From positions 1-35,937 of the forward strand of contig CALXKR010000001.1 in NCBI GenBank assembly GCA_944388895.1: DNA of 35,937 bases. Direction: 5' to 3'. The notes under the pieces were generated by a model, which did no database searches, was not told the origin of the DNA, and worked only from the letters and a program-made list of their open reading frames with translations. Shown here piece by piece: positions 604-35,626 of the stretch; position 1 is the stretch's first letter; the number at the start of each line of letters is the position of its first letter. The translations under genes and the position numbers were made by a program. The stretch comes from an uncultured Clostridia bacterium (GTDB lineage: Bacteria > Bacillota > Clostridia > TANB77 > CAG-508).

Positions 604-2550
604 TTATTCTTCACTTTTTTCTTTTAATTTGTTAACATTTGTTTCCATAAATTCAAATTCTTTCTTAGTTGGAACTATTTCAATTATTGCTGTTTGCTCT
701 CCAACTTTAAATAACCCTTGTCCTCTACTACATGTTGTTAAAAAAGAAGCTTCTCCTTCTGATAATTTAAATACCTCTTTTATATATTGAATTTCTGATT
801 TGTCTTGTGCTAAAAACAATTTTGTATCTGAAGATGTAAGAACTGCTTGAACTTCTGATTTTTCATAGAAGTCTTGAAATCTTTGTGATACTACGGCAAG
901 TGATACATTTCTTTTTCTTGCACGTCTTGCCATTTTGTTTAGAAAGTCTACTGCTTCTGGATAAGGTAAAAGCATCCAAGCTTCATCAACTAAAACTCTC
1001 TTTTTACCTGCTTTTGATTTATCCTCACTATTTCTTTTAACATATTTTTCCCATATCCAAGAAAGTAATATTTGTTGAGCAAGTGGTCTTGCAAATCTTT
1101 CTTCTAGGTTTGATATATCTAAATTTATAAAAGATGTTCCTTCTAATAAATCAAATGTAGATTGTCCATCAAAATATGACATTTGTCCATTAAACTCTCT
1201 TACATATTGTCTCATTACTTTAATTAAGTAACTATAATGACTTCTATAATCTGGATTTGTGTTTTTATTTGCATTTTCTTCTAATCTATGATACCAAGAG
1301 CCTATAGTTGGCATTTGTTTTTTGCTTTTACCTAAATAGTCACTCTTCATAATTGTACTAGAATTGATTGCATATAGACTATTTACATCATTATTTATTC
1401 CAATAGCTGCATATTCTTCGGCAGCTGCTTCAGCTATAATTTGTTTTGTTACTTCATTAATGTCTTCTGATCTAGTACTTCCCCTTGCCATTGTTAATAA
1501 AATTTGTGTAACATCTTCTACTTTATTCTCAACATTAAGAACAACTTTTTCTCTACCTGTGATTTCATCTCTTGTTATTTCTGGCTCTATATCAAAAGGA
1601 TTTATAATTGTTTTTGAATTAGGAGATATTACTACATTTATTCCACCAAGAGCCTCTGCAACAATTCCATATTCTCCTTCGGCATCTAGTGCTAAACTTT
1701 CTATTCCCATTAAAACTGCTGATCTTGCAATTAAAGTTTTTATAGTAACACCTTTACCAGCACCTGATTTACCAAAAACGACCATATTGTAATTACTTAA
1801 TTCTGAGCTAAAGTTATCATATAATATTGGTAACCCTGTTTGCCTGTTGAATCCTATTGGAATTCCATTTTCATGTCCTACATCAGAATTTATAAAAGGA
1901 AACACTGTTGCCATTGATCTACGATCAAATGTATGTGTTTTTGCAATTTTATCTTCTCCAAATGGTAAATTAGATTTAAAAGCATCTTCTTGCATTGCCC
2001 AAGCTGTTTTTATTCCAATAAGAGTTTTTGCCATTTCTGAAGATAGCAATTCTGTTTGTTTATCTAATTCTTCTAAGCTATATGCATATAATGTACATAT
2101 AATAGATGAATCATATAATTTATCCATACCACTAGCAATAGCATCTCTTAAGCTTTCAGCCTCTGCCCTTTTTTGAGCTAATAAACTTTCACGGTTTATA
2201 TCACCTCTATCTATTGCTACTATTCTTTCAGATTCCAATTCATTTATTGTTTTATTTAAATCACTTTGTGATTTTGCTTCACTTATTGGATTTATAAATA
2301 CTGATACATTTATATCTCCAAAAGTATACATTCCTCTTAATAATTCTGGGAATGTACACATTCTTGGCAATGTAGAAATTGTTAATGTTCTAGCAAATTT
2401 ACTAGTATTTGATACAATTTCTAGTTGTCTAGTATGAGTTGCATCTATTCCTGAAGGAGCTATTAAATCTTTTATATCTTTGCTCCTTTTTGTGAACCCT
2501 TTATCATTATTTGGAGTTTGAACTTGATTTAAACTCTCATTATTTTTCAT
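604..2550 (-). CDS. VirB4/TrsE/PrgJ-type T4SS ATPase
   Basis: 648 aa. Walker A is VVFGKSGAGKGVT and Walker B is KRVLVDEAWMLL. The N-terminal region (IAPSGIDATHTRQLEI...TLTISTLPR...INVSVFINPI) matches the pattern of VirB4-family N-domains. ATG start with AGGAGG SD. Confidence 0.85.
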   Translation of the reverse strand: MKNNESLNQVQTPNNDKGFTKRSKDIKDLIAPSGIDATHTRQLEIVSNTSKFARTLTISTLPRMCTFPELLRGMYTFGDINVSVFINPISEAKSQSDLNKTINELESERIVAIDRGDINRESLLAQKRAEAESLRDAIASGMDKLYDSSIICTLYAYSLEELDKQTELLSSEMAKTLIGIKTAWAMQEDAFKSNLPFGEDKIAKTHTFDRRSMATVFPFINSDVGHENGIPIGFNRQTGLPILYDNFSSELSNYNMVVFGKSGAGKGVTIKTLIARSAVLMGIESLALDAEGEYGIVAEALGGINVVISPNSKTIINPFDIEPEITRDEITGREKVVLNVENKVEDVTQILLTMARGSTRSEDINEVTKQIIAEAAAEEYAAIGINNDVNSLYAINSSTIMKSDYLGKSKKQMPTIGSWYHRLEENANKNTNPDYRSHYSYLIKVMRQYVREFNGQMSYFDGQSTFDLLEGTSFINLDISNLEERFARPLAQQILLSWIWEKYVKRNSEDKSKAGKKRVLVDEAWMLLPYPEAVDFLNKMARRARKRNVSLAVVSQRFQDFYEKSEVQAVLTSSDTKLFLAQDKSEIQYIKEVFKLSEGEASFLTTCSRGQGLFKVGEQTAIIEIVPTKKEFEFMETNVNKLKEKSEE

Positions 2551-2574
2551 TATGGACTTTCCTCCTATCTTTGG

Positions 2575-3750
2575 TTATATATTTTTCTTAATTACTTTTT
2601 TAGTTGTTTTTTGCTCTCCACTATTTTCTGTATTTCCATCTATTTGCTTTTTACTCTCTTCGTAAAGTTTTTTGCTCATTTCACTTTTATTTTCTTCTAA
2701 TAATTCCAAAGCCCTTTGTTTTATTTTTTGTTCCTTAATTCTTTCTTCCCTTATTTTTTTATCAGCTTCAATAATTCCTTGAGTTGCTAATTTAGTTGCC
2801 TCTTCTTCAATTTGCTTTTCAATTCTAGCCTTTTTCTCTTGCATTACGTCTTTTGCTGTTGAATACAATCTATCGTATTCAGAATTTAATGCATTTTTTA
2901 ATGTATAAACTTCTGAATCATCTCTATTATATGCTACATATAATAATTCCATTAATTCTTCTGAATCAAGTACTTTTGCTGAAACTTCCGCAGAAGCTAA
3001 GGCTCTAATTAATGTTTGTGCTCTTGTATATAATTCTGAAAAAGCTATATCGTTTATTTCTTCTTTTGAATATGTACTTGTATCTCCAAATTCTGAAGTA
3101 TAATATGATAGTACTAGGTATGTTTTTTGTTGTAAAATATTTTTACTTGCATTTAATCTTTCTGTATAGCTTGTAACTGATTCACTATATTCCAATATAT
3201 TTTGTTTTCTTCTTCTCTCAAATTCTAATTTTGAAACAACCTCATTTGCTCCTCTTTTTTTTGCATTTTCAATTTGAGCACTTAGTCTTTCAATTTGATT
3301 TTTTACATCTTGTATTCTGTTATGGTATCCATCGATTAATTCGTCAAAATTTAGTGTTCTTGTTTGAACATACAGTTGAATTGGGTATCTAAGTGTATTT
3401 AAAAATTCTATAAATCCTGATTCCACTGCATTTTTTTCATCTTCTGAAAGTAAGTCATAATTTATTCCTTTGCACTTTAATACCATTACATACTGTTTAC
3501 CATTTTTTCTTACAATCATATTATCTTGTATTTCATCAAATTCCATAAATTCATATATTGAATCTATAACTTTTCCATCTCTTGTAATTAAATTAGGTTT
3601 TGGTTGTTCTTTCTTTTCTTGAGTAGTAGCACTTTGAGGTTCTTGTTTTTTTCTCATTTTATAAATAAGTAATACCGCAACCAATCCAAGCAATAATATT
3701 AAAACTAATATAACTATAAGTAATAAATTAAGTATTTGTATAGTATCCAT
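2575..3750 (-). CDS. T4SS-associated membrane-anchored coiled-coil protein whose N-domain resembles a VirB4 N-terminal domain; no P-loop
   Basis: 391 aa. N-terminal TM (ILNLLLIVILVLILLLGLVAVLLIY), then ITRDGKVIDSIYEFMEFDEIQDNMIVRKNGKQYVMVLKCKGINYDLLSEDEKNAVESGFIEFLNTLRYPIQLYVQT, then K/E-rich coiled-coil sequence. The ATG directly abuts the stop of the upstream gene (3751-3753) with AGGAGG inside that gene. The domain assignment is from my memory of Tn916 Orf16-type N-termini. Confidence 0.45.
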   Translation of the reverse strand: MDTIQILNLLLIVILVLILLLGLVAVLLIYKMRKKQEPQSATTQEKKEQPKPNLITRDGKVIDSIYEFMEFDEIQDNMIVRKNGKQYVMVLKCKGINYDLLSEDEKNAVESGFIEFLNTLRYPIQLYVQTRTLNFDELIDGYHNRIQDVKNQIERLSAQIENAKKRGANEVVSKLEFERRRKQNILEYSESVTSYTERLNASKNILQQKTYLVLSYYTSEFGDTSTYSKEEINDIAFSELYTRAQTLIRALASAEVSAKVLDSEELMELLYVAYNRDDSEVYTLKNALNSEYDRLYSTAKDVMQEKKARIEKQIEEEATKLATQGIIEADKKIREERIKEQKIKQRALELLEENKSEMSKKLYEESKKQIDGNTENSGEQKTTKKVIKKNI

Positions 3751-4176
3751 CTATTTTTCCTCCTTTGTATTATTAGTAATTTTATTTAATAATTTTCCAA
3801 AATTTAAGCTATCCATTTTATTGGCATAGTCTGGTTCTTTTCTAGGTATAGCGTATGTATAAACTTTTTTATTTTTATTGAACAATATATATCTTAAAAT
3901 AATATCGTCTAAAGAATCTCCACCTACATTTTTTGCTAATTTTGTATTTCCTGCTGTTGGCATCTTTATAGTTCCAATTCCATAACCAATTAAACTTAAA
4001 ATTGCAACACATGCTATTCCCACTGGTTTAAGTCCTAGTATAATTCCAAATATAAAGTATAAAATCATCCCAATGAAGGCTCCTATGACAGTATAAATTA
4101 ATGACTTTGCCGTAAAAATATATAAAATTCTACTTTCACCTTTTAAATTATTATTTGGTATATAATAACTACCCAT
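3751..4176 (-). CDS. PrgI/VirB3-like small T4SS membrane protein
   Basis: 141 aa with two adjacent TM helices in the N-terminal half (LIYTVIGAFIGMILYFIFGIILG / VGIACVAILSLIGYGIG). Located upstream of the VirB4 gene and translationally coupled to the next gene. Confidence 0.5.
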   Translation of the reverse strand: MGSYYIPNNNLKGESRILYIFTAKSLIYTVIGAFIGMILYFIFGIILGLKPVGIACVAILSLIGYGIGTIKMPTAGNTKLAKNVGGDSLDDIILRYILFNKNKKVYTYAIPRKEPDYANKMDSLNFGKLLNKITNNTKEEK

Positions 4177-4194
4177 AAAAATTTCCTCCTTTGT

Positions 4195-4584
4195 TTATCC
4201 TAATAAATTATTCATTAAATTTACAAGTATTGTAAAAATTCCAATACCTCCATATATAACTACTGTTGCAATTACAAGCCCTATTAATTTTTGTTTTATA
4301 TCAGCTTTTCCTGATGGATCAGTTAACATATATTTAACTCCTAAATACATAAAACATCCAACCAAAACAACAGAACCAATAGAAATTAATATTTGTCCTA
4401 TTGGTAATAATTTTCCCCATACTTCATCTGTTGTTATTGGTGGATTTTGAGATCCTTGATTTATCCATTCATCTGCTTTATCTTTCATATTTCCAGCAGT
4501 CGTTGCATATGCATTGTTTTCTAATGACAGTAGTATTAAAATTGCACATACAATCATTGTTCCTATTTTTATAATTTTTTTCAT
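4195..4584 (-). CDS. VirB2/TrbC-like T4SS pilin paralogue 1
   Basis: 129 aa. Signal peptide ends ...NNAYA. A variable segment is followed by two TM helices joined by the short charged loop TDPSGKADIKQK. Same architecture as the two paralogues upstream. Confidence 0.6.
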   Translation of the reverse strand: MKKIIKIGTMIVCAILILLSLENNAYATTAGNMKDKADEWINQGSQNPPITTDEVWGKLLPIGQILISIGSVVLVGCFMYLGVKYMLTDPSGKADIKQKLIGLVIATVVIYGGIGIFTILVNLMNNLLG

Positions 4585-4619
4585 AATATACTCCCTATTT
4601 TACATTTATAATTATGTGT

Positions 4620-4649
4620 ATTATATACTTTGCGACATATTATTTTCAA
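4620..4649 (-). promoter_or_regulatory. Sigma-A-type promoter for pilin paralogue 1
   Basis: Minus strand: TTGAAA (4649-4644), 18-nt spacer, TATAAT (4625-4620), about 35 nt upstream of the ATG at 4584. Confidence 0.5.
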
Positions 4650-4665
4650 TAGTTTTTATAAATTT

Positions 4666-5040
4666 TTATTTAATATTTGTTAACGCTAAATTTGAAATTA
4701 TTTGTACAATTCCTCCTGCTGCAAATAGCATTACTGCTCCTACTGCTAAGTATATCATCTTCTTTTTTATTTCAGCCTTTGCATCTGGTGCTGATATCAT
4801 ATATTTAACTCCTGAATACATTAAAATAATAACAGCTGCCCCATAGAAGATAACTTGTAATATCCATAATACTTTACCCCCTATGTCTGAAATTGGATTA
4901 TCTGAAGAATTATATATGTCATCCATATTGCCAGGTAAAGTTATTCCTCCAGCGTAACAATAACTAGTAAAAATACTTCCCAAGATTATTAATAATATTA
5001 CTATAAAAATTACTTTAAACAATATATTTTTTCTGTTCAT
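4666..5040 (-). CDS. VirB2/TrbC-like T4SS pilin paralogue 2
   Basis: 124 aa. Signal peptide ends ...SYCYA. Two TM helices are joined by SAPDAKAEIKKK. The C-terminal ...NLALTNIK is nearly identical to paralogue 3. Confidence 0.6.
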   Translation of the reverse strand: MNRKNILFKVIFIVILLIILGSIFTSYCYAGGITLPGNMDDIYNSSDNPISDIGGKVLWILQVIFYGAAVIILMYSGVKYMISAPDAKAEIKKKMIYLAVGAVMLFAAGGIVQIISNLALTNIK

Positions 5041-5072
5041 TTTTTCTCCTTTTAATTTAACTTATTAAATCT

Positions 5073-5102
5073 ATTATACTATTATTCCTTGCTAGTTTTC
5101 AA
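5073..5102 (-). promoter_or_regulatory. Sigma-A-type promoter for pilin paralogue 2
   Basis: Minus strand: TTGAAA (5102-5097), 18-nt spacer, TATAAT (5078-5073). SD AAAGGAG precedes the ATG at 5040. Confidence 0.5.
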
Positions 5103-5145
5103 GTGTTTTAATGAATTTTAATGCATTAAAACGTGTATTTTTAGT

Positions 5146-5181
5146 AAAAAAAAAATAAGCAATCTTACTTGATTGCTTATT
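5146..5181 (-). terminator. Rho-independent terminator after pilin paralogue 3
   Basis: 11-bp perfect stem AATAAGCAATC / GATTGCTTATT (5154-5164 / 5171-5181) with a 6-nt loop. On the minus strand it is followed by a run of about 9-10 U (plus-strand A run 5146-5155). It starts 8 nt after the stop at 5189. Confidence 0.75.
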
Positions 5182-5188
5182 TGGTTTA

Positions 5189-5548
5189 TTATTTAATATT
5201 TGTTTCAGCTAAATTCTTAATTATTGCTAATATTCCACTAGCTGCAAATAATAATATTGCACCTACAACATATATGATAGCTGTTTTCTTTATTTCTGCT
5301 TTTCCTTCTGGAGATGCTGTTATAAACTTAATACCTACAAATATAAGCATAATAACTGCTGCAGCAAAAGCTATCATTTGTATGATAAATATTACATTTC
5401 CTGTTATGCTATTTATTGAGCTAACTCCTGTACCTCCTGGTTGTACCGCACTTGGAATAGATGCTCCAAGAACTATACTAAAAGCACTTAGGATTGCTGT
5501 TATAATAAATAATACAGATGTTATCTTAGCTAATTTTCTTGTATTCAT
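5189..5548 (-). CDS. VirB2/TrbC-like T4SS pilin paralogue 3 (promoter-proximal; candidate major subunit)
   Basis: 119 aa. Signal peptide ends ...IVLGA. Two TM helices are joined by ASPEGKAEIKKT. Strong SD GAGGAGG. Confidence 0.6.
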   Translation of the reverse strand: MNTRKLAKITSVLFIITAILSAFSIVLGASIPSAVQPGGTGVSSINSITGNVIFIIQMIAFAAAVIMLIFVGIKFITASPEGKAEIKKTAIIYVVGAILLFAASGILAIIKNLAETNIK

Positions 5549-7181: not shown

Positions 7182-8381
7182 CTAGTCCTCCCTCTTTAGA
7201 AAATAAATTGTGTCCATAGTTACTTGTTTAGCAATTTCTATAATTTGTTCTTTAGTAATATTTTTTAGTTTCATAATATAATCTTGTACTGTTAAATTTT
7301 CTTCAAATAGTGATTGATCAAAATAAAATGCAATCATATCTTCTGCAGACTCTGGTATTAAGCTTATAGATGAAATTAATAATTCTTTTGCTGCATCAAA
7401 TTCTTCATCACTAATATTTCCATTTTTCATTTCTTCTAACTGTTTTTTTATAATATTTAAAGTTTTTTCATAGTTTGCTATTTCTATTCCTGTTTTTATT
7501 AATATTGTATTTTGTCTTCTAATATATGAAGAGCTTGCTGAATAAGCTAAACTTTCCTTTTCTCTAACATTTTGGAATAATTTAGAATTTGCTCCTCCAC
7601 CAAGAACAGTATTAAATAAAGAAACTGCCATTTTATTTGTATTTGGAGCATTTAATCCAATTATTAATTTACCTTGAGTTACATCCAAGTTTTCCTTTAC
7701 TATTTTAGTTTTTCCTGTTTTAAAATGCTTAATGTCTATTTTTTCTAGTAAATTTGTTTTTATGTTTGGTATTTTTATGTTTTCTATATTTTCTCCCAAT
7801 ATAAATAGGTCTACTTTAGATTCTTTTATTATTTTTTTATAATAATCATATAAGTTTTTTTCGTCAATGTTTTTTAAATCTTCTATATTACCATATTTAT
7901 ATAATGAATATGGTTCACCATCAAACATTTCTTCAATAAGTCTTTCTATAGCATAAGAAGCTTTATTGTCTTTTCTTGAAAGTAACATTTTAGAAAGGTT
8001 TTCTTTTTCCTGTTCTACATACTCTTTTTTGAAAGCTTCATTTTCAATTAAAGGATTAAATATTATTTCAAGTAATAGGTCTATTCCATCTTGTAAGTTA
8101 TTTTCATTATTTAAAACATACTTATTATCTAATGTTTCTAAGTAAAATTTAAGTACATGATAATTTCCTATTTTATCTACTCCACAGTTAAACCCTGCTC
8201 CATACATTTCTTCTAATTTTTTTGAAATATCTTCTTGAGTAGTTAAATTTTTCGTTCCTCTCCTTAAAACAGATACTAATAATGCATTTTTAGTTACAGT
8301 TTCTTTTTTTAGAGGTAATGTTAAAAATACTGAGCATAAATTTGTTTTAAATTTATTTGTTTGAAGTTTTGTAATTTCCAT
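7182..8381 (-). CDS. M16 family peptidase-like protein without the HxxEH motif (probable non-catalytic partner)
   Basis: 399 aa. Similar length and layout to its neighbour, but I find no HxxEH. The tandem arrangement resembles YmfF/YmfH-type pairs. Confidence 0.7.
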   Translation of the reverse strand: MEITKLQTNKFKTNLCSVFLTLPLKKETVTKNALLVSVLRRGTKNLTTQEDISKKLEEMYGAGFNCGVDKIGNYHVLKFYLETLDNKYVLNNENNLQDGIDLLLEIIFNPLIENEAFKKEYVEQEKENLSKMLLSRKDNKASYAIERLIEEMFDGEPYSLYKYGNIEDLKNIDEKNLYDYYKKIIKESKVDLFILGENIENIKIPNIKTNLLEKIDIKHFKTGKTKIVKENLDVTQGKLIIGLNAPNTNKMAVSLFNTVLGGGANSKLFQNVREKESLAYSASSSYIRRQNTILIKTGIEIANYEKTLNIIKKQLEEMKNGNISDEEFDAAKELLISSISLIPESAEDMIAFYFDQSLFEENLTVQDYIMKLKNITKEQIIEIAKQVTMDTIYFLKRED

Positions 8382-8391
8382 TCTTTCCTCC

Positions 8392-9849
8392 TTAGTCTAT
8401 GGTTTGATAAATATCAAAATTTTCTATTTTTCCAATATACTTCATATTTTCTTTTATGTACGTTATTGATTTATCTGAAATTTGAAAAATTTCATTTTTT
8501 TCATCGCTTAATAAAAGAATTTGAGTATTTTTCAATTTTTTTATTTTTTCAAGCAAACCTTTTTCTCCATCTTTACCTAGGTTTCCCTTAAAAGGCCAAT
8601 CATATACGTTATTGTCCAAATCATTCAACGTTAAAGAATAAAATGGTGCATATGTTGAAAAAACAATTGTGTCCTTATTATTATTTTTTATATATTGACT
8701 TACAGTTTCAATTTCTTTTTGTAATTGTTCTTCTATTATTGAACCATAAAAAATTGATGTAGTTTGCATTTGTTTAATATAATTATAAAATCCTAAAGTG
8801 CTTATTATTATCATATATATTGATATTATTAGTATTGCCACTTTTAAGATTATTTTTTGCATTTTTTTCTCTATTATTGGATATACTAAATAGTGTAAAT
8901 CATATGCGACATTAATTAAAAGGCAAATGCATGCCAATTTTAAGTGATAGACATTAAAGATTGGCACTAATAGTATTAATGAACATAGTGAAAATATTAA
9001 CAATATAGTTAATTCTTTTCTTACTTTTTTGCTTTTTTCAATTTTTATTATCACATTATATAACAAAATTGTAATAATTGTGAAGAAAATAAATATACTG
9101 CCTGGTAGCAAAATATTTTTACTAAATACAGTGTTTTCATTTCTAAATTCTGATATTCCAAGCATAGTATAGTTTATAAAATTATATAAATTATTTTGTA
9201 TTAACAAATGCAATAAAAAAAATGTAGTTAATATACCTGCTATAAATAATTGTTTAATTAGTGCTTTTATATTCTTATTATATATTTGGAAAACTGTCAT
9301 GGCTAATAAATATCCTGCTGCTAGTTTTTGATTACTAATAAAAACTAAAAAAAGTATAATTCCTTGAAATATATTTTTATGCCTATCTTCTTCATTTTTT
9401 AAGTTAAATAATAATCCAAGTTCGAAAAAAATATAAGCAAGTACATTATAATTTGCTCCTGCTTGGGCAATTTCAGATGTAAAAAGCATAATTAGTAAAG
9501 TATATAATAAAGATGCTTGTTTAGTTATTTTTAATGTTTTTAATATTTTATAGCATAACACATATAGTATAGTCATTAATATTAGATTATATACTCTATA
9601 AACTAAGAAATTACTGCCTAATATACCAAGAAATATTTTTCCTATATAAAAAAATAGCGGAGTTATAATTACATTGGTATCTTTATATATAGTTAAGCCA
9701 TTTGCCATTTTATAGGTATTTAAAAAATTTATTAGTTCGTCATTATTTGTTAAAAATATATTAAATACATTTGAGAGTAGTATTATAGCTATTAGCATTG
9801 TTATTAGTAATATATCATGTTTTTTTAAACTTTGAATTGCTTTTTTCAT
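8392..9849 (-). CDS. Polytopic membrane protein, possible GT-C fold (GT39/ArnT-like) glycosyltransferase
   Basis: 485 aa with about 11-12 hydrophobic helices, an acidic DE pair in the first loop (TNNDELINF) and a C-terminal soluble domain of about 110 aa. No clear SD precedes the ATG at 9849. Function is tentative. Confidence 0.45.
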   Translation of the reverse strand: MKKAIQSLKKHDILLITMLIAIILLSNVFNIFLTNNDELINFLNTYKMANGLTIYKDTNVIITPLFFYIGKIFLGILGSNFLVYRVYNLILMTILYVLCYKILKTLKITKQASLLYTLLIMLFTSEIAQAGANYNVLAYIFFELGLLFNLKNEEDRHKNIFQGIILFLVFISNQKLAAGYLLAMTVFQIYNKNIKALIKQLFIAGILTTFFLLHLLIQNNLYNFINYTMLGISEFRNENTVFSKNILLPGSIFIFFTIITILLYNVIIKIEKSKKVRKELTILLIFSLCSLILLVPIFNVYHLKLACICLLINVAYDLHYLVYPIIEKKMQKIILKVAILIISIYMIIISTLGFYNYIKQMQTTSIFYGSIIEEQLQKEIETVSQYIKNNNKDTIVFSTYAPFYSLTLNDLDNNVYDWPFKGNLGKDGEKGLLEKIKKLKNTQILLLSDEKNEIFQISDKSITYIKENMKYIGKIENFDIYQTID

Positions 9850-13339: not shown

Positions 13340-14057
13340 ATTTTTCTCTTGCCTTAACAACTAATCGTTGTTGTCCATAATTCGTGCAAGTAATTAATGT
13401 TATTTCTCTTTGTCCATTCGTAAGTTGGCTAGTACAACTTACATCTGTAGGCTCTACAACATATTTGTTATATACTGAATAAGTTACTGTTTCTCCATTT
13501 AAATCTTTTAAATTTATTTCATCTCCTATTTCTGCTGAACTTAATTTTCCAAACATTTTTCCATTTTTATAATTATGCCCTACAATAACATAATTTCCTA
13601 CTTTATTAGGATTTGGTCCCCAATACTTACAAAGTGATATTTTTAATAATTCATCTGTTTCTTCAGATAATACCGGATAATTAATTCCTAACTTTGGATA
13701 ATCCAGTATAGCTTCAGTAGTATAACTTTGTCCATTAGCTGTAATTTCAGAATTTATTGTATTAGATGTTGTACTCGGAAGATCTATTATTGGGATTTCT
13801 TCATTTTCTTCATTATCATTATCTAAAGCTACAACAATAACTCTTTCTTCAACAGTAGTATTATCTCCATTCATTTGGGTTAATATTTCTCTAGAAATCT
13901 GTTCTTTTTGATTTTTATCATATTCTGCAACTACATAATAGCCAGCAAGAATTATAACTAATATAAGACATAAAATAAATATTATTTTATACACTTTACG
14001 TTTTTTTCGCATTTCTTGTGTAACATATATTTTTTCTGAAACCAATATTTGGTTCAT
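13338..14057 (-). CDS. Sortase family transpeptidase
   Basis: 239 aa. N-terminal TM anchor, catalytic His context VIVGHN, TLxTC motif (ITLITCT), downstream Arg (RLVVKA). Confidence 0.85.
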   Translation of the reverse strand: MNQILVSEKIYVTQEMRKKRKVYKIIFILCLILVIILAGYYVVAEYDKNQKEQISREILTQMNGDNTTVEERVIVVALDNDNEENEEIPIIDLPSTTSNTINSEITANGQSYTTEAILDYPKLGINYPVLSEETDELLKISLCKYWGPNPNKVGNYVIVGHNYKNGKMFGKLSSAEIGDEINLKDLNGETVTYSVYNKYVVEPTDVSCTSQLTNGQREITLITCTNYGQQRLVVKAREK

Positions 14058-20269: not shown

Positions 20270-20459
20270 TTTTTTGATTAGGGACGTTCCTTAATCGAAA
20301 AAAATATTTTATAAATCAAAATTTATTTTTTTCGAAGTAAGGACGCGCAGTTTGGAGCCCCCTTTAGTGGGGCGACAGCAAGGAACACGGAGAAAAGAAT
20401 AAAATTTGTTGATAAATTTATTAATAATTTTCGATTAAGGAACGTCCCTAATCAAAAAA
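20270..20459. repeat. 190-nt element with 32-bp perfect terminal inverted repeats and a GC-rich core; structured RNA or MITE-like element of unknown family
   Basis: 20270-20301 (TTTTTTGATTAGGGACGTTCCTTAATCGAAAA) is the exact reverse complement of 20428-20459. The interior has imperfect AT-rich pairing plus a GC-rich core containing the hairpin GCCCC-CTTTAGT-GGGGC (20357-20373). The repeat is seen directly; its function is unknown. Confidence 0.6.
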
Positions 20460-30237: not shown

Positions 30238-33200
30238 TTATTCCTCATAATTTCCATCATCATATGAGTCATCTATGTCTTCATCTAAATATTCTTCTCC
30301 AATTAGACTGTCATCTGACTCGTCAGCTAATTCTTCAAATATGCTGTCTCCTTCTTCTTCTAATTCTTCATCTGTTTCAGAGTATCCATCTGCTAATTCT
30401 TTTTCATCTACTACAAGTTGTTCTTGTGTTTTAGAATTATTTACTACGTTAAAGTCAACTCCTTCATCTATGTCTTCTTTTAATTCTATTTCTTCATTTT
30501 TATCTGAATATAGTCTTAAATCTAGACCTAGAGATTGTAATTCTTTAAGTAATACTTTAAATCCTTCTGGTACACCTGGTTTTGGTATATCTTCACCTTT
30601 TACAATTGCTTCATATGTTTTAACACGTCCAACAATATCGTCTGATTTTGTTGTAATCATTTCTTGAAGTGTATATGCTGCACCATAAGCTTCTAATGCC
30701 CAAACTTCCATTTCACCAAATCTTTGTCCACCAAATTGTGCTTTACCACCTAAAGGTTGTTGTGTAACTAATGAGTATGGTCCAGTTGAACGAGCATGTA
30801 TTTTATCATCAACTAAGTGATGTAGTTTTAACATATACATAACACCAACTGTTACTGGATGATCAAAGGCATCACCTGTTCTACCATCATAAATAGTAGT
30901 TTTTCCATCTCTAGACAATCCTGCTTCTTGTAATAGCTCTTCAATTTCTTTGTCTTTTGCACCATCAAATACTGGTGTTTCAACTTTCCATCCTAAAGCT
31001 CTTGCAGCCATACCTAAGTGAACTTCAAGTACCTGACCTAAGTTCATACGAGAAGGTACACCCATTGGGTTTAGTACAATGTCTACTGGTGTTCCATCTG
31101 GTAAGAATGGCATATCTTCTTCTGGAAGTATTCTTGAAATAACACCTTTGTTACCATGACGTCCTGACATTTTATCACCAACAGATATTTTTCTCTTTGT
31201 AGCAATATAACATCTTATAACTTGGTTTACCCCTGGTGCTAATTCATCTGAATTTTCTCTAGTAAATATTTTAACATCTACTATAGTTCCAGCTTCTCCA
31301 TGTGGTACTCTTAATGATGTATCTCTAACTTCTCTTGATTTTTCACCAAAGATAGCTCTTAAAAGTCTTTCTTCTGCTGTAAGCTCTGTTTCTCCTTTTG
31401 GTGTAACTTTACCTACTAAAATATCTCCTGGTCTTACTTCAGCACCAACTCTTATAATACCATCTTCGTCTAAGTCTTTTAAGCTGTCTTCACCAACGTT
31501 TGGAATATCTCTTGTTATTTCTTCTGGTCCAAGTTTTGTATCACGACATTCGCAATCGTATTCTTCAATGTGAATTGATGTATAAACATCATCTTTAACT
31601 AATCTTTCACTAATTAATACAGCATCTTCGAAGTTGTAACCTTCCCATGTAGAGAAAGCTATAAGTACGTTTCTTCCTAGAGCCATTTCTCCATTTTCAG
31701 TTGATGGTCCATCTGCTATTGTGTCACCTTTTGCAACTTTTTCACCAACGCTAACCATTGGTCTTTGGTTAATACATGTACCACCATTTGTTCTTTTGAA
31801 TTTTAATAATTTATATTTTTTAATTTCATTTTTGTTATTTCTAACTTGAATTTCGTCACCTGTTACTTTTTCAACTATTCCATCCTCTTCAGCAACAACT
31901 GTAATTCCTGAATCTTTTGCTGCTCTATATTCCATACCTGTTCCAACTATTGGAGCTTCTGGTTTTAAAAGTGGAACTGCTTGACGTTGCATGTTTGAAC
32001 CCATTAGAGAACGTTTTACGTCATCATGCTCTAAGAAAGGTATCATTGCTGCTGCAACAGAAACTAATTCTTTTGGTGATATTTCAACATAATCTACTTT
32101 ATCACTTGAAACTTCTTTAATTTCAGTTACTTGTCTTACTTTAATTCTTGAATTAATGAATTTACCTTCACTGTCTACAGGTTCAGATGCTTGGGCTATA
32201 ATATATTTATCTTCTTCGTCAGCAGATAAATAATCTACTTGATCTGTTAATTTACCTGTTTCTTTGTCTACTTTTCTGTATGGTGCTTCAATAAATCCAT
32301 ATTCATTTATTCTAGCAAATGATGAAAGTGCTGAAATTAAACCAATGTTAGGTCCTTCTGGTGATTCTACTGGGCATAGTCTACCATAGTGAGTATAGTG
32401 AATATCTCTAACTTCGAAACCAGCTCTTTCTCTAGTTAAACCTCCAGGTCCTAATGCTGAAATTCTTCTTTTATGAGTTAGCTCAGATAATGGGTTTGTT
32501 TGATCCATGAACTGAGATAATTGTGAACTTCCAAAGAATTCTCTAATTGATGATGATATTGGTTTTGTGTTAATTAATGCTTGTGGAGTTATTGAGTCTA
32601 AATCTTGTATTGTCATTCTTTCACGAACAACTCTTTCAAGTCTTGCTAGACCAATTCTAAATTGGTTTTGTAATAATTCTCCAACACATCTAATACGTCT
32701 ATTTCCTAAATGGTCTATATCATCAATTTTTCCTAAACCATGAGATAAGTTTAATAAATAGCTTATTGATGCTATAATATCTCCATTTGTTATGTTCTTT
32801 GGAACTAATTCTTCCATTCTTTCTTTTATTGTGTCATGTAATTTAGCTTCTTCTGTAGTATCAAGTATTGATTTTAATACTTCATAATTTACTAATTCTT
32901 TAATGTGTAAATCACTTAAATCTACTGTAACAAAGTTATTTATATCTACTGTTCCATTACCTATTACAGTAACTTTTTTGTCTCCTACTTTTACATTTAC
33001 AATGTTAATTCCAGAATTTTGAATTTGTTTTGCAACTTCACTTGAGATAACTTCGTCTTTTTCAACAAAAATTTCTCCTGTTTCGCCATCTGATATAGTA
33101 TCAAATGCAATTTGTCCAGTGATTCTTTCTGCTAAACTTAATTTGTTGTTAAATTTATGTCTTCCTACTTTTGCTAGGTCATATCTTTTTGGATCAAAGA

Positions 33201-33981
33201 ATAATCTGTCAAATAATGTTCTAGCAGCATCTACTGTTGGAAGTTCTCCTGGTCTTAATTTTTTGTAAATTTCAATTATAGCTTCATCAGATTTTTTGAT
33301 TGGATCTTTATCTAGAGTTGCTTTTAATAATTGTTCTTCTCCAAATAGGGCTAATATTTGGTCGTCTTTTTCAATTCCTATTGCTCTTAATAGAGTAGTT
33401 ACTGGAATTTTTCTTGTTCTGTCAACTCTTACATAAAATACATCATTGTTATCTGTTTCATATTCAAGCCAAGCTCCTCTTAAAGGCATTACTGTCGATG
33501 TAAATAATTTTTTACCTGTTTTTGTATCCATTGTATAAGCATAGTAGCAACTTGGTGAACGTACTAACTGGCTTACAACAACTCTTTCAGCTCCATTAAT
33601 TACGAATGTAGCTGTGTCTGTCATAAGAGGAAAATCTCCAAGATAAATTTCTTGTTCTTTAATTTCTCCTGTTTCCCTGTTAAATAGTCTTACTTTAACA
33701 TGTAATTTAGTTGAGTATGTAGCATCTCTTTCTTTTGCTTCTTCTACTGTGTACTTTGGGTTTTCATCCATACGATAGTCTAAAAATTCTAGAACTAAGT
33801 TTTCTGAATAGTCTACTATTGGAGAAACATCTCTTAAAACTTCTCCTAATCCTTCGTTAATGAACCAATTATAAGAATCTTTTTGTACTTGAATTAAGTT
33901 AGGCATTTCTATAAAGTCGCCTATTTTTGAAAAAGATTTTCTTGTAGTTTTTTCATGTTTAATGTCTTTAACTTGTACCAA
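30238..33981 (-). CDS. rpoB: DNA-directed RNA polymerase subunit beta
   Basis: 1247 aa. Conserved blocks include [13 protein letters not shown] and the rifampicin-cluster region [21 protein letters not shown]. Acidic C-terminal tail. TTG start (33981-33979) preceded by GGGGGG. Confidence 0.97.
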
Positions 33982-34161
33982 AGGTAATCCCCCCTAAATA
34001 AATTTAAGCAGACTTTTTATACGACTTGCCCGAAAGTCCTTCTTGCAATATGCCCATTTTATATTTTCTAGCTCCTGCTCTCTAGCCAAAAAGGTTATAA
34101 AATAAAGCATATTCAATTCCTCTTTTTAGGCAATTTACATAAATAAACTGAAGAAGGCAAA

Positions 34162-34200
34162 AGAAAGGTAAACCGACAGTATAGCCGATTTTACCTTTCT
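34162..34200 (-). promoter_or_regulatory. Terminator-like hairpin inside the rpoB leader (possible attenuator)
   Basis: 11-bp perfect stem AGAAAGGTAAA / TTTACCTTTCT (34162-34172 / 34190-34200) with a 17-nt loop. On the minus strand it is followed by TTTGCC. Located about 85 nt downstream of the predicted promoter. Confidence 0.4.
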
Positions 34201-34288
34201 ATATAAAATTCAATTATTTAATAATTAACGAATTTATCATCTATTAGCCCTCTAGATTTTATTTCCGTACATTTAATATACTTTAATT

Positions 34289-34318
34289 ATTATACAACCT
34301 ATTGTAAAGGCTTGTCAA
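34289..34318 (-). promoter_or_regulatory. Sigma-A promoter for rpoBC
   Basis: Minus strand: TTGACA (34318-34313), 18-nt spacer, TATAAT (34294-34289). This implies a leader of about 300 nt. Confidence 0.55.
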
Positions 34319-34341
34319 TAATTTTTGAAATATTTTTAAAG

Positions 34342-34378
34342 AAAATATGCAGATCATTACTTATAACCTGCATATTTT
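34342..34378 (-). terminator. Rho-independent terminator after the FGE-domain gene
   Basis: Stem AAAATATGCAG / CTGCATATTTT (34342-34352 / 34368-34378) with a 15-nt loop and a T-rich tail on the minus strand. Confidence 0.6.
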
Positions 34379-34432
34379 TTAGTTATATATTTTTTTCAAT
34401 GTTCAAGCTAAGAGCTTTCTCACTAGTTTTGG

Positions 34433-35626
34433 TTACTTCCACATATACAGCGGCTTTAGCCCATCAAGCACTACAAATACAAAGCTGAACGGAAACCGTC
34501 CGCGGCTGTCCGAATAGTCGGGATCGTCGGCGCTGTAGCGAGAAGACGCTGGACCGTAAGAACCTGAATCGTTGTAACCGCCCCCTCGAGTCACACGGTA
34601 GTCAGTGGAGTCCGCTTCCATTGTCCATTCCCAAACATTTCCTGCTAAGTCATATATGTTTTTTACTCGGTAATTATCACTTGAACCACATGTTTTTTTA
34701 CTAACAGTATAATTTCCTTTTCCTGTTGAATTTGCTACATATGAACTTGATGTATCACATGTTGAAGTTTTATATGCTGGGTCTATCCAAGCCATTATTT
34801 CATCCCACTGAGTTCCATATATTAATGTACTTGTTACTCCGTAAGTATTTTTATCTGTATACATTCCTTTTGATTTTGCTACTGCTCCATCTGTTCCTAT
34901 TTCTGTCATACTTGTTCCCCATGGTACATCTACCCAAGGATTTGCTCCTTTTTTACTTACTACTTTTCCATTCTCATTTCCAGCTTCAAATCTTGCTACA
35001 TAAAATCCTTTATTTTTTTCTACACTTGCTTTCATAGCGTTATATTCTTCTACTTCACTTGGATATCTAGAACCTTCTGGTGCTGGTTCATAATAACTTG
35101 AAATTGATTGTGTCGAACCATTATAGTAACTAGGATATCTCTTAAATTCACTAAAATTCTCCACTGGCACCCATACAAATTGATTTCCTACTAGTCCATC
35201 TGCTGGTATATTGGCTTGGTCTGGGTGGCTCTCTTTTGAATATTTATTTTCGTCTGCTTTTGCGTCAGATATTACTATTCCATCATTTTTTGTTCCACCT
35301 ACATAGTAGAATCCTTTTGGTATTGTTACGCCCTCTACTTGGGTTTGATTTCCACCACCTTGGCTTCCGCCATTTCCATTCATATATTCATCCAAGAAAT
35401 TTGATACCTTATCTATTTCATCTTGTTCATTTTTACTTGCTTCTTCCCATTTTTGTGTTGCATTCTGGGCTCTTGTAAATATTCCGTTATTTCCTATTGT
35501 TAAATTTATTGCTACTGCTGCTAATATTAGTAAAACTATTATTGTTACTACAAGTGCTATTAATGTTATGCCTTTTGCTTCTTTTTTTATCTTTTTAATG
35601 TCTAATATTTTCCTATTATTTTTCAT
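34433..35626 (-). CDS. Pilin-like N-terminal anchor plus FGE/SUMF1 (C-type-lectin fold) domain surface protein; the 3' end looks frameshifted relative to the family end-motif
   Basis: 397 aa. N-terminus is KGITLIALVVTIIVLLILAAVAINLTIGNNGIFTRA, which is prepilin-like but has Ala instead of Glu at +5. The FGE-domain hallmark DLAGNVWEWT...RVTRGGGY is present. ATG with AAGGAGG SD. Confidence 0.8.
   Translation of the reverse strand: MKNNRKILDIKKIKKEAKGITLIALVVTIIVLLILAAVAINLTIGNNGIFTRAQNATQKWEEASKNEQDEIDKVSNFLDEYMNGNGGSQGGGNQTQVEGVTIPKGFYYVGGTKNDGIVISDAKADENKYSKESHPDQANIPADGLVGNQFVWVPVENFSEFKRYPSYYNGSTQSISSYYEPAPEGSRYPSEVEEYNAMKASVEKNKGFYVARFEAGNENGKVVSKKGANPWVDVPWGTSMTEIGTDGAVAKSKGMYTDKNTYGVTSTLIYGTQWDEIMAWIDPAYKTSTCDTSSSYVANSTGKGNYTVSKKTCGSSDNYRVKNIYDLAGNVWEWTMEADSTDYRVTRGGGYNDSGSYGPASSRYSADDPDYSDSRGRFPFSFVFVVLDGLKPLYMWK
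34448..34618 (-). other. GC-rich, adenine-poor block at the 3' end of the FGE-domain gene; candidate DGR variable region
   Basis: The composition switches abruptly just after the WEWTME codons. The coding strand is rich in NNC codons (GAC, TAC, AGC, GCC, CCC, CGC) in a genome that otherwise prefers A/T-ending codons. No matching template repeat occurs in this window. Confidence 0.5.

Follow-up and report, generated by a model that had tools for sequence, protein, structure and literature searches.

The sequence analysed here is a stretch of 35,937 nt from an uncultured Clostridia bacterium (contig CALXKR010000001.1), referred to as the window. Near its right end, on the minus strand, lies the gene of a protein with a pilin-like N-terminus and a C-terminal domain of the C-type-lectin/FGE type. 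The 3' end of this gene is considered here as the putative variable region (VR) of a diversity-generating retroelement (DGR). A spacer of 451 nt parts the open reading frame (ORF) from rpoB (30238-33981), which lies downstream, and upstream of the gene some 300 nt remain to the contig end. Elsewhere the window is low-GC chromosome with rpoC, dnaB, L9, FtsH, PBP, NrdD/G and other genes. The features of the gene, together with the DGR cassette of a related locus that served as reference, are listed in Table 1.

Table 1. Features of the target gene in the window and of the reference cassette at the related locus L001. TR, template repeat; RT, reverse transcriptase; IMH, initiation of mutagenic homing; AF2, AlphaFold2.
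Feature	Positions	Strand	Basis or remark
Target gene, 397 aa	34433-35626	minus	ORF list
Pilin-like N-terminus, residues 1-43	35498-35626	minus	basic leader MKNNRKILDIKKIKKEAKG, then hydrophobic ITLIALVVTIIVLLILAAVAINLT
C-type-lectin/FGE-like domain, residues 93-397	34436-35350	minus	AF2 model, fold and profile matches
VR proper, 135 nt, 45 codons	34499-34633	minus	codon table across relatives
Extra codon GCC in a run of AAC-type codons	34529-34531	minus	in the window and L007, absent from four other clade members
Extra-base site, CGC GGA, equivalent to …AAC AAA in the TR (AACAAAC for AACAAC)	34499-34504	minus	TR comparison
Invariant VR 3' end and IMH-like sequence, CGGTTTCCGTTCAGCT followed by TTGTATTTGTAG	34471-34498	minus	homology to VR ends of cassette loci
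Canonical end GFRSALYL-stop, frame +1 relative to the ORF	34471-34497	minus	three-frame translation
Read-through tail, …VLDGLKPLYMWK-stop	34433-34470	minus	from 3' non-coding sequence of in-frame relatives
Post-VR segment, …CTGAAYGCTAAAGCCGCTG…TAGTGAGAAAGC	34414-34479	minus	blastn against L001 7504-7566; cis and remote targets
L001 cassette: MutS-domain-I-like (MSL-like) protein of 143 aa, bAvd of 124 aa, RT of 334 aa (8551-9555), TR			directly downstream of target P0018
L001 TR, 135-nt repeat of the 3' end of the gene	9576-9710		

The end of the target gene stood out by its composition. A block of 171 nt (34448-34618) had been flagged in a first-pass annotation. Its GC content of 0.567 was the maximum of all 171-nt windows in the 35.9 kb, which had a mean of 0.288 and a standard deviation of 0.052, corresponding to z = 5.4. 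The next-best window more than 300 nt away from the block reached 0.439. Adenine accounted for 0.181 (31/171) of the coding (minus) strand of the block; elsewhere the mean was 0.434 and the minimum 0.281. An earlier hand count of about 23 A in about 135 nt after the WEWTME codons was reproduced by tallies over 30 nt, which gave about 24. Codon usage was likewise foreign to the habit of the window. GAC and GAT occurred in a ratio of 5/2 and TAC and TAT in a ratio of 4/1, compared with 151/430 and 62/346 in the window's other genes. Third positions in the block were C18, T13, G9 and A7; the other genes had A5543, T3543, G654 and C641. The description of the block as GC-rich, adenine-poor and biased towards NNC codons was thus borne out, and the peptide quoted for it was correct on translation. 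Its range ran about 50 nt too far in the 3' direction, into the IMH-like end and the read-through tail, and left out the first variable codon at 34631-34633.

In the VR proper, about 22 NNC/NNT codons are hypervariable; the scaffold around them is invariant and largely free of adenine. At the 5' end of the VR stands a single NNN codon directly before EW, and at its 3' end a single NNA codon. The template inferred from this pattern reads GAAGCGAACTCCACTAACAACCGTGTGAATCGAGGGGGCAATTACAACAATTCAGGTTCTAACAATCCAGCGTCTAATCGCAAC(AAC)nAATCCCAACAATTCGAACAGCAACAAACGGTTTCCGTTCAGCTCTAAT and includes …CGTGTGAATCGAGGGGGCAATTACAACAATTCAGGTTCTAACAATCCAGCGTCTAATCGC…. Related loci from other samples were compared: P0002 (L091), P0006 (L008/L009), P0004 (L010) and P0007 (L092). 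Their proteins are 82-87% identical to that of the window. Every scaffold base across 34499-34633 is common to the window, L091, L008 and L010. Differences among these four VRs are restricted to positions 1 and 2 of the NNC/NNT codons, the codon before EW and the last NNA codon. When the window was aligned with all four related loci, the variable columns of the VR were distributed over codon positions 1, 2 and 3 as 18/16/0 (of 46/46/45). The upstream thirds of the gene gave 7/8/28, 19/17/41 and 9/12/19. Third positions vary in 19-31% of the codons outside the VR versus none of the 45 codons inside it. The zero third-position change therefore points to repeated overwriting from a conserved template, not to descent with selection at the protein level. 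A test of the columns against adenine used the TR of a relative (L001) as guide and not the cognate one. Among the A columns, 33 were variable and 22 constant; among the non-A columns, 8 were variable and 91 constant.

Two of the compared loci occupy the same genomic position as the target gene. L091 has the same rpoB leader and rpoB downstream, and L092 has the same downstream spacer. Outside the VR, the gene and rpoB of both diverge from the window by 8-12% at the nucleotide level, and both have different VRs. Because the same locus carries different VRs, the rpoB-adjacent VR must have been rewritten after the split from L091 and L092. No cassette was found beside the rpoB-adjacent copy in the lineages of the window, L091 or L092. 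The identical scaffold was found in different contexts, being rpoB-adjacent, GerA-adjacent or UPF0236-adjacent. As far as these alignments go, the comparison of a locus across lineages shows that DGR action can be established with the cassette out of reach. The apparent signature is an inverted codon-position pattern, with variation at positions 1 and 2 and none at position 3.

Complete cassettes were present in more distant relatives. Locus L001, on a contig of 95.9 kb, carries target P0018, which is 64% identical to the window protein and is followed by genes for an MSL-like protein, bAvd and RT and by a TR. VR and TR of L001 differ at 24 positions, of which 23 are adenines in the TR. The lone exception is a C/T difference at the boundary where the IMH begins. 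Five more cassettes from metagenome-assembled genomes (MAGs) in GTDB showed 18-24 of 19-25 mismatches at TR adenines, without gaps. A DGR architecture with this order of target, MSL, avd, RT and TR, in which MSL is the accessory gene, has been described (PMC5758913). Among the GTDB species genomes, 362 related loci were detected, all in MAGs of uncultured Clostridia from animal guts, and some single MAGs contain at least 5-6 copies. A cassette stands alongside the target at only 7-8 of the 80 fetched loci; an adjacent RT was found at L001, L016, L023, L038, L048, L054 and L090. The cassette in this family lies downstream of the target, the position taken by rpoB in the window. Within one MAG, a single TR also matches VRs located on other contigs. 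Mismatches fell on TR adenines in 19/20 cases for L026 of MAG HT69, in 19/20 for L049 of ERR4835933.1 and in 21/25 for L041 of Chick115. More decayed remote copies were L025 with 23/27 and L027 with 22/29 and a gap. Remote targets thus appear to be the rule in this family. The proposal that the window gene is a remote target fits this picture, with no cassette in view at its own locus.

Further observations concern the cassettes themselves. Approximately 100 nt after the TR (L001 9696-9800, …CTCTAATATTATTTCAGATTATATATTTTACGGAATATATACAGTAAAGTATTAGATATTAAAG…) are 81-100% identical across cassettes, and the RTs only 68-97%. Equivalents of this stretch were found at L016, L023, L038, L048, L054, L090, L093, L094 and L096. 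It is probably a functional non-coding part of the DGR RNA. At L048, the cassette and the post-TR spacer are present, and the TR was not picked up by the search. In MAG ERR3414584_bin.74, to which L048 belongs, the same VR peptide is encoded three times, at L046 4460-4582 and 6230-6352, which lie 1.8 kb apart, and at L048 11222-11344. The three copies have equal mismatch counts against the L001 TR and could be recent duplicates, a collapsed assembly or the mark of an inactive element.

The sequence elements that follow a VR were identified in the window by homology. At cassette loci, the TR diverges from the VR after GCT, with GCTTTA in the VR and GCTCTA in the TR. A putative IMH is present at the corresponding VR 3' end in the window. 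The post-VR segment (34414-34479) may belong to the site by which a target is recognised. Downstream of the IMH, where phage BPP-1 has a hairpin or cruciform, no conserved one was detected; RNAalifold gave -1.2 kcal/mol and no covariation. The spacer between VR and MSL-like gene (L001 7504-7770; L008 4422-4619) is 70-75% conserved over about 250-270 nt at cassette loci. In L001, it contains a palindromic stretch of 66 nt (7612-7676). Compensatory changes in its outer stem were seen by eye in L008, comparing GGGATTTTTC…GAGAAAAATCCC with GGACTTTTTC…GAGAAAAAGTCC. Of this spacer, the first 60-130 nt are all that remote targets retain; the window has about 63 nt.

The protein was expected from the first-pass annotation to end at the GFR motif. 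The motif is encoded, but out of frame (+1). The ORF reads RFPFSFVFVVLDGLKPLYMWK-stop instead, ending …SDSRGRFPFSFVFVVLDGLKPLYMWK-stop, and frame +1 reads …DGFRSALYL-stop. An extra base of the same kind was found in templates. The TRs of L001 and L096, whose RTs are 95% identical, read …CCCCAACAAACGGTTTCCGT, which is one base longer than the in-frame …AAC ATC GGT TTY CGT of other cassettes. AACAAAC lies at about 9686-9692 in the L001 TR, and the L096 TR lies at about 1390-1545. The window, L091, L008 and L010 share the +1 length. L092 is one base shorter at this site and ends GFRSALYL-stop. A single base in the A-run thus separates in-frame from shifted alleles, whether they occupy one locus (L092) or have one scaffold in common (L005/L042). 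Among the 120 best homologues, 83 have the G[FY]R..LY[LI] end in frame and 26 are shifted (RFP…); P0011 was also judged as shifted by eye. Of 77 VR ends found among the 80 GTDB loci, 13 have the GFR end in frame +1. In-frame and shifted ends both occur within the same close clades. In shifted targets, the terminal GFR strand becomes RFP(F/C)… plus a tail, and the cassettes of L001 and L096 are intact. The L054 TR (13370-13501) carries a different insertion, an extra C in the RGG codons (CGTGGTCGGCAAT); because of it, the cis VR of L054 and the remote L049 VR are truncated and end in RGRRL-stop or RGRQL-stop.

The tails of P0001-P0009 differ in length and frame through indels of 2 nt. They follow the ancestral stop and vary in this way, which is why they are regarded as accidental read-through. 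The shifted tail is also the least confident part of the AF2 model. Programmed ribosomal frameshifting that restores GFR was ruled out, since the shift site itself is hypervariable: its codons read CGC GGA, GAC CTA, AGC TTA or GAC TTA, and no slippery sequence is conserved. In-frame indels beside AAC repeats, of which the extra GCC codon of the window may be an example, are a described DGR feature, and so are frameshifts (PMC5758913). A template-borne shift that is broadcast to still-diversified targets is less usual than these known indels. A doubtful possibility is that the TR of this clade carries the +1 frameshift (AACAAAC), that all targets have received it by retrohoming from cassettes which go on diversifying them, and that RT slippage toggles the frame of the last strand, acting, in addition to codon diversification, as an on/off switch or a switch between alternative C-termini.

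The target protein belongs to a very large family, with more than 7,900 homologues at E <= 1e-3 among 8,000 candidates. The assembly index had no entry identical to it. A linker connects the N-terminal hydrophobic helix with the C-type-lectin/FGE-type domain. The Pfam model FGE-sulfatase matched the protein weakly, with 18.4 bits against a cut-off of 23.3. An AF2 model of the domain (residues 93-397, 117 sequences) reached a pLDDT of 85.4 and a pTM of 0.87, and only the last 15 residues were below 50. An earlier full-length run with 21 sequences had a pLDDT of 49 and was discarded. The best PDB fold matches of the domain model in Foldseek were TaqVP (5vf4), Mtd (1yu0-1yu4) and TvpA (2y3c), followed by FGE-like sulfoxide synthases. 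Foldseek probabilities for the DGR variable proteins were 0.97-1.0, yet TM-scores were 0.30-0.40 and identities 13-15%. A profile built from 21 members matched pFGE (1y4j) at 1e-6 and Treponema TvpA (2y3c) at 0.064. The match of the model to DGR variable proteins agrees with the earlier placement of the VR at the C-terminal end of a C-type-lectin/FGE-type fold.

The N-terminus reads KKEAKG directly followed by ITLIALVVTIIVLLILAAVAINLT. It has a short basic leader ending in Gly and a hydrophobic helix of about 20 residues, as in a class III signal peptide. The Pfam model N_methyl matched with 14.9 bits, below its cut-off of 21.2 (E = 0.02), and a scan with NCBIfam gave no prepilin match for the window protein. 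Position +5 is Ala and not Glu, both in the window protein and throughout the family consensus. The N-terminal part of the 21-member profile weakly matches the pilins 9egp, 9laa and 9lab. One homologue carries the NCBI name 'type II secretion system protein', and a full-length AF2 model predicted a long N-terminal helix with low confidence. No pilus machinery was seen near the target gene. The protein may tentatively be called pilin-like, and is not a demonstrated pilin. The anchor proposed in the first-pass annotation is thus backed by the basic leader and the hydrophobic helix, but not by N_methyl, which stayed below the cut-off, nor by Glu5, which is absent. Glu5 is likewise missing from minor pseudopilins that sit at the tip, GspK for example. 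It may be speculated that a leader without Glu5 would suit a ligand-binding tip.

The surroundings of the gene were searched for a cassette. A position just beyond the right edge, one of the options considered earlier, was ruled out. L091 is 98% identical to the window over its last 98 nt, and in L091 this stretch is the terminator region of a gene that runs in the same direction and encodes a PG_binding_1 protein; the L091 orthologue continues into this gene. The corresponding position in L007, a locus from another sample, is taken by an IS4-like transposase, and the cassettes of the family lie downstream of their targets. The transposase gene of L007 (3-1235) is of the DDE type and joins the window sequence at about 35884, a strain-specific insertion beside the target.

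Altogether, the block is considered, in its identity and history, a genuine variable region of a DGR, situated in a remote target gene, with a probability of roughly 85%. This is based on relatives that share the scaffold and vary at the predicted adenine sites, and on relatives that hold full cassettes. The copy would be, or would have been, written in trans, and its protein would bind a ligand. The cassette is somewhat likely to be still in this genome.

Several results weigh against this interpretation. No repeat of the block occurs in the window, and tblastn with the MSL-like, bAvd and RT proteins of a relative gave no match there. Pfam scans of the window detected housekeeping genes and no DGR-type RT or Avd. 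The repeat search, tblastn and Pfam scans thus agree with the first-pass annotation in finding no TR, avd or RT. The VR scaffold, searched as a pattern with N at the adenine sites, had 0 matches in GTDB species genomes, JGI metagenomes and IMG/VR. Four RT contigs (P0122-P0125) were inspected out of 2,282 RT homologues. Their RTs are 88-95% identical to the L001 RT, and their TRs, one of which breaks off after 45 nt, do not match the window scaffold. L007 is 98% identical to the window over 3.9 kb. Outside the VR, the gene shows 17 differences; rpoB has 22 and the upstream sequence 53. Between 33605 and 35211 (1.6 kb), no difference was found, and this range includes the whole VR, the tail and the downstream intergenic region. 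Ongoing hypervariability between close strains was therefore not observed, and there is no sign of ongoing diversification, because the VR is 100% identical in L007 despite the differences elsewhere. The out-of-frame GFR end and the extra codon could also be read as decay.

Some of these results speak for the main rival explanation, a fossil or orphan VR. The region would have been written by a DGR in the past, the cassette would have been lost or the site fallen out of use, and the sequence would now evolve as ordinary DNA, with decay just beginning. The VR shared with L007 in spite of 17 substitutions elsewhere in the gene, and a cognate TR found neither in the three collections nor on the four RT contigs, are both expected under this explanation. 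Decaying cassettes and garbled VRs do exist in the family (L054, L049, L027, L040), and only about 63 nt of the post-VR element are kept in the window versus about 190-267 nt at cis targets. However, the scaffold has zero substitutions outside adenine sites compared with three clade members, so that any loss would be very recent. The +1 state is not decay in itself, as it is found in the TRs of the intact cassettes L001 and L096, whose targets are still diversified. The identity with L007 spans the entire 1.6-kb block of 33605-35211 and could reflect a recent sweep or recombination. A fossil VR is thus possible, although unlikely.

Gene conversion among paralogous lectin-domain genes, without reverse transcription and with the variable codons under diversifying selection, could also spread a common scaffold. 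Several paralogues are present per genome, and the identical scaffold was found at loci in different genomic contexts. But gene conversion would copy the variable codons as well, and every copy has a different set. Moreover, variation is limited to the adenine sites of the relatives' TR and to codon positions 1 and 2, and the relatives carry the full retroelement with TR/VR mismatches at A only. This explanation is very improbable. A gene end gained by horizontal transfer or recombination, or a chimeric assembly, would account for the sharp compositional switch inside the gene and would suit the nearby contig end. This can hardly be credited, as the same junction and block occur in at least five independent assemblies (L007, L008/L009, L010, L091, L092) and throughout the family of more than 7,900 proteins, all members of which switch composition at the VR boundary.

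Under the DGR interpretation, the following sequence of events is proposed. A cassette of MSL-like gene, bAvd and RT elsewhere in the genome, as deduced from the relatives, would transcribe an adenine-rich TR. The RT would copy it with adenine-specific errors, and the cDNA would replace the VR, anchored at the conserved IMH-like 3' end. AAC and AAT codons of the TR would thereby become NNC and NNT codons of the VR. The last 45 or so codons would encode the ligand-binding face of the lectin/FGE-type domain. The TR lineage of this copy would carry one extra A (AACAAAC), placing GFRSALYL-stop out of frame and letting the protein end in RFPFSF… plus the tail. The VR would have been rewritten after the split from L091 and L092 (about 8-12% divergence) and would have remained unchanged since the split from L007 (about 2%).

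The same process would explain the foreign appearance of the block. The AAY codons of the template would be randomised at positions 1 and 2, with C or T kept at position 3. The scaffold codons, mostly adenine-free (CGT GTG, GGG GGC, GGT TCT, GCG TCT, CGC, CCC, TCG), would be shielded from mutagenesis. A GC-rich, adenine-poor and NNC-biased patch in a genome of 29% GC would arise because of these two effects, an account that agrees with the codon table.

Other features of the window were noted. In the spacer between target gene and rpoB, a near-consensus sigma-70 promoter was recognised by eye at 34290-34325 on the minus strand (TTGACA-17 nt-TATAAT; ttgacaagcctttacaataggttgtataat). It is conserved in L091, so that rpoB seems to be served by a promoter of its own, immediately behind the DGR target. 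The sole other GC-rich patch of the window (about 20339-20393) lies within 126 nt flanked by a perfect inverted repeat of 32 nt (20270-20301 and 20428-20459). The region 20270-20459 is intergenic, with a PP-loop (TilS-like) gene on one side and dnaB on the other; it may represent a structured RNA, an invertible segment or a miniature mobile element. Neither Rfam nor tRNA scans matched anything in the window at gathering thresholds; the only sub-threshold Rfam match in this region was a generic hairpin match to a plant miRNA model. A conjugation-type patch resembling a type IV secretion system (T4SS) is present at the left end (604-5548) and is unrelated to the DGR target. It comprises a TraG/VirB4-type P-loop ATPase gene (604-2550) and, adjoining it, three small paralogous genes (4195-4584, 4666-5040 and 5189-5548) that match T4SS pilin and TrbC-VirB2 models.

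The closest known counterpart is the DGR of Treponema denticola, which diversifies TvpA and seven further targets scattered over the genome (PMC5758913). Like the element considered here, it is cellular and not phage-borne, its targets have an FGE-type lectin fold with a C-terminal VR, and one TR serves several dispersed paralogous targets, as in MAGs HT69, ERR4835933.1 and Chick115. In contrast, TvpA is a lipoprotein and the N-terminus of the window protein is pilin-like. The host of the window is an uncultured low-GC gut Clostridia bacterium, the related cassettes include an MSL-like gene, and the GFR end of the clade is frame-shifted. The order of genes in the relatives is that of 'architecture D' (Wu et al. 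2018), which comprises MSL, avd, RT and TR and is represented by the Legionella pneumophila DGR. MSL has been described as an accessory gene found together with avd (PMC5758913). The window itself holds no part of a cassette, and its membership in this architecture is deduced from the relatives only. With Mtd of BPP-1 and TaqVP of Thermus aquaticus, the window gene shares the C-terminal VR, the diversified AAC-type codons and the IMH-like sequence after the VR. However, Mtd forms the tip of a phage tail fibre and the window target is a chromosomal gene beside rpoB, and the GC-rich hairpin that follows the IMH in BPP-1 is not detectable in the window. In Bacteroides, as outlined in a preprint, the adhesive components at the tips of type V pili are diversified by DGRs (bioRxiv 10.1101/2024.11.15.621889). 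The likeness to that system, as far as the outline reaches, lies in gut bacteria with lectin-type modules predicted on pilus-like or surface structures. Pilus class and phylum are different, and the leader in the window is weak, type-IV-like and without Glu5.

A cellular DGR, a cassette of MSL, Avd, RT and TR, a lectin-fold target and multiple remote targets have all been described already. Only two features are less familiar, the pilin-like anchor and the template-borne frameshift, and the known DGR mechanism is unchanged by these findings. Large metagenome surveys of DGRs state that targets not beside an RT cannot be detected (PMC8144416). The window exemplifies such a hidden remote target, since composition and codon pattern alone were enough to recognise it. 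Its family of pilin-like lectin proteins is very large and is represented in uncultured gut Clostridia by several copies per genome. Frameshifts borne by the TR show that a single template mutation reaches all targets of an element, which bears on the decay of these elements or, possibly, on the switching of protein ends.

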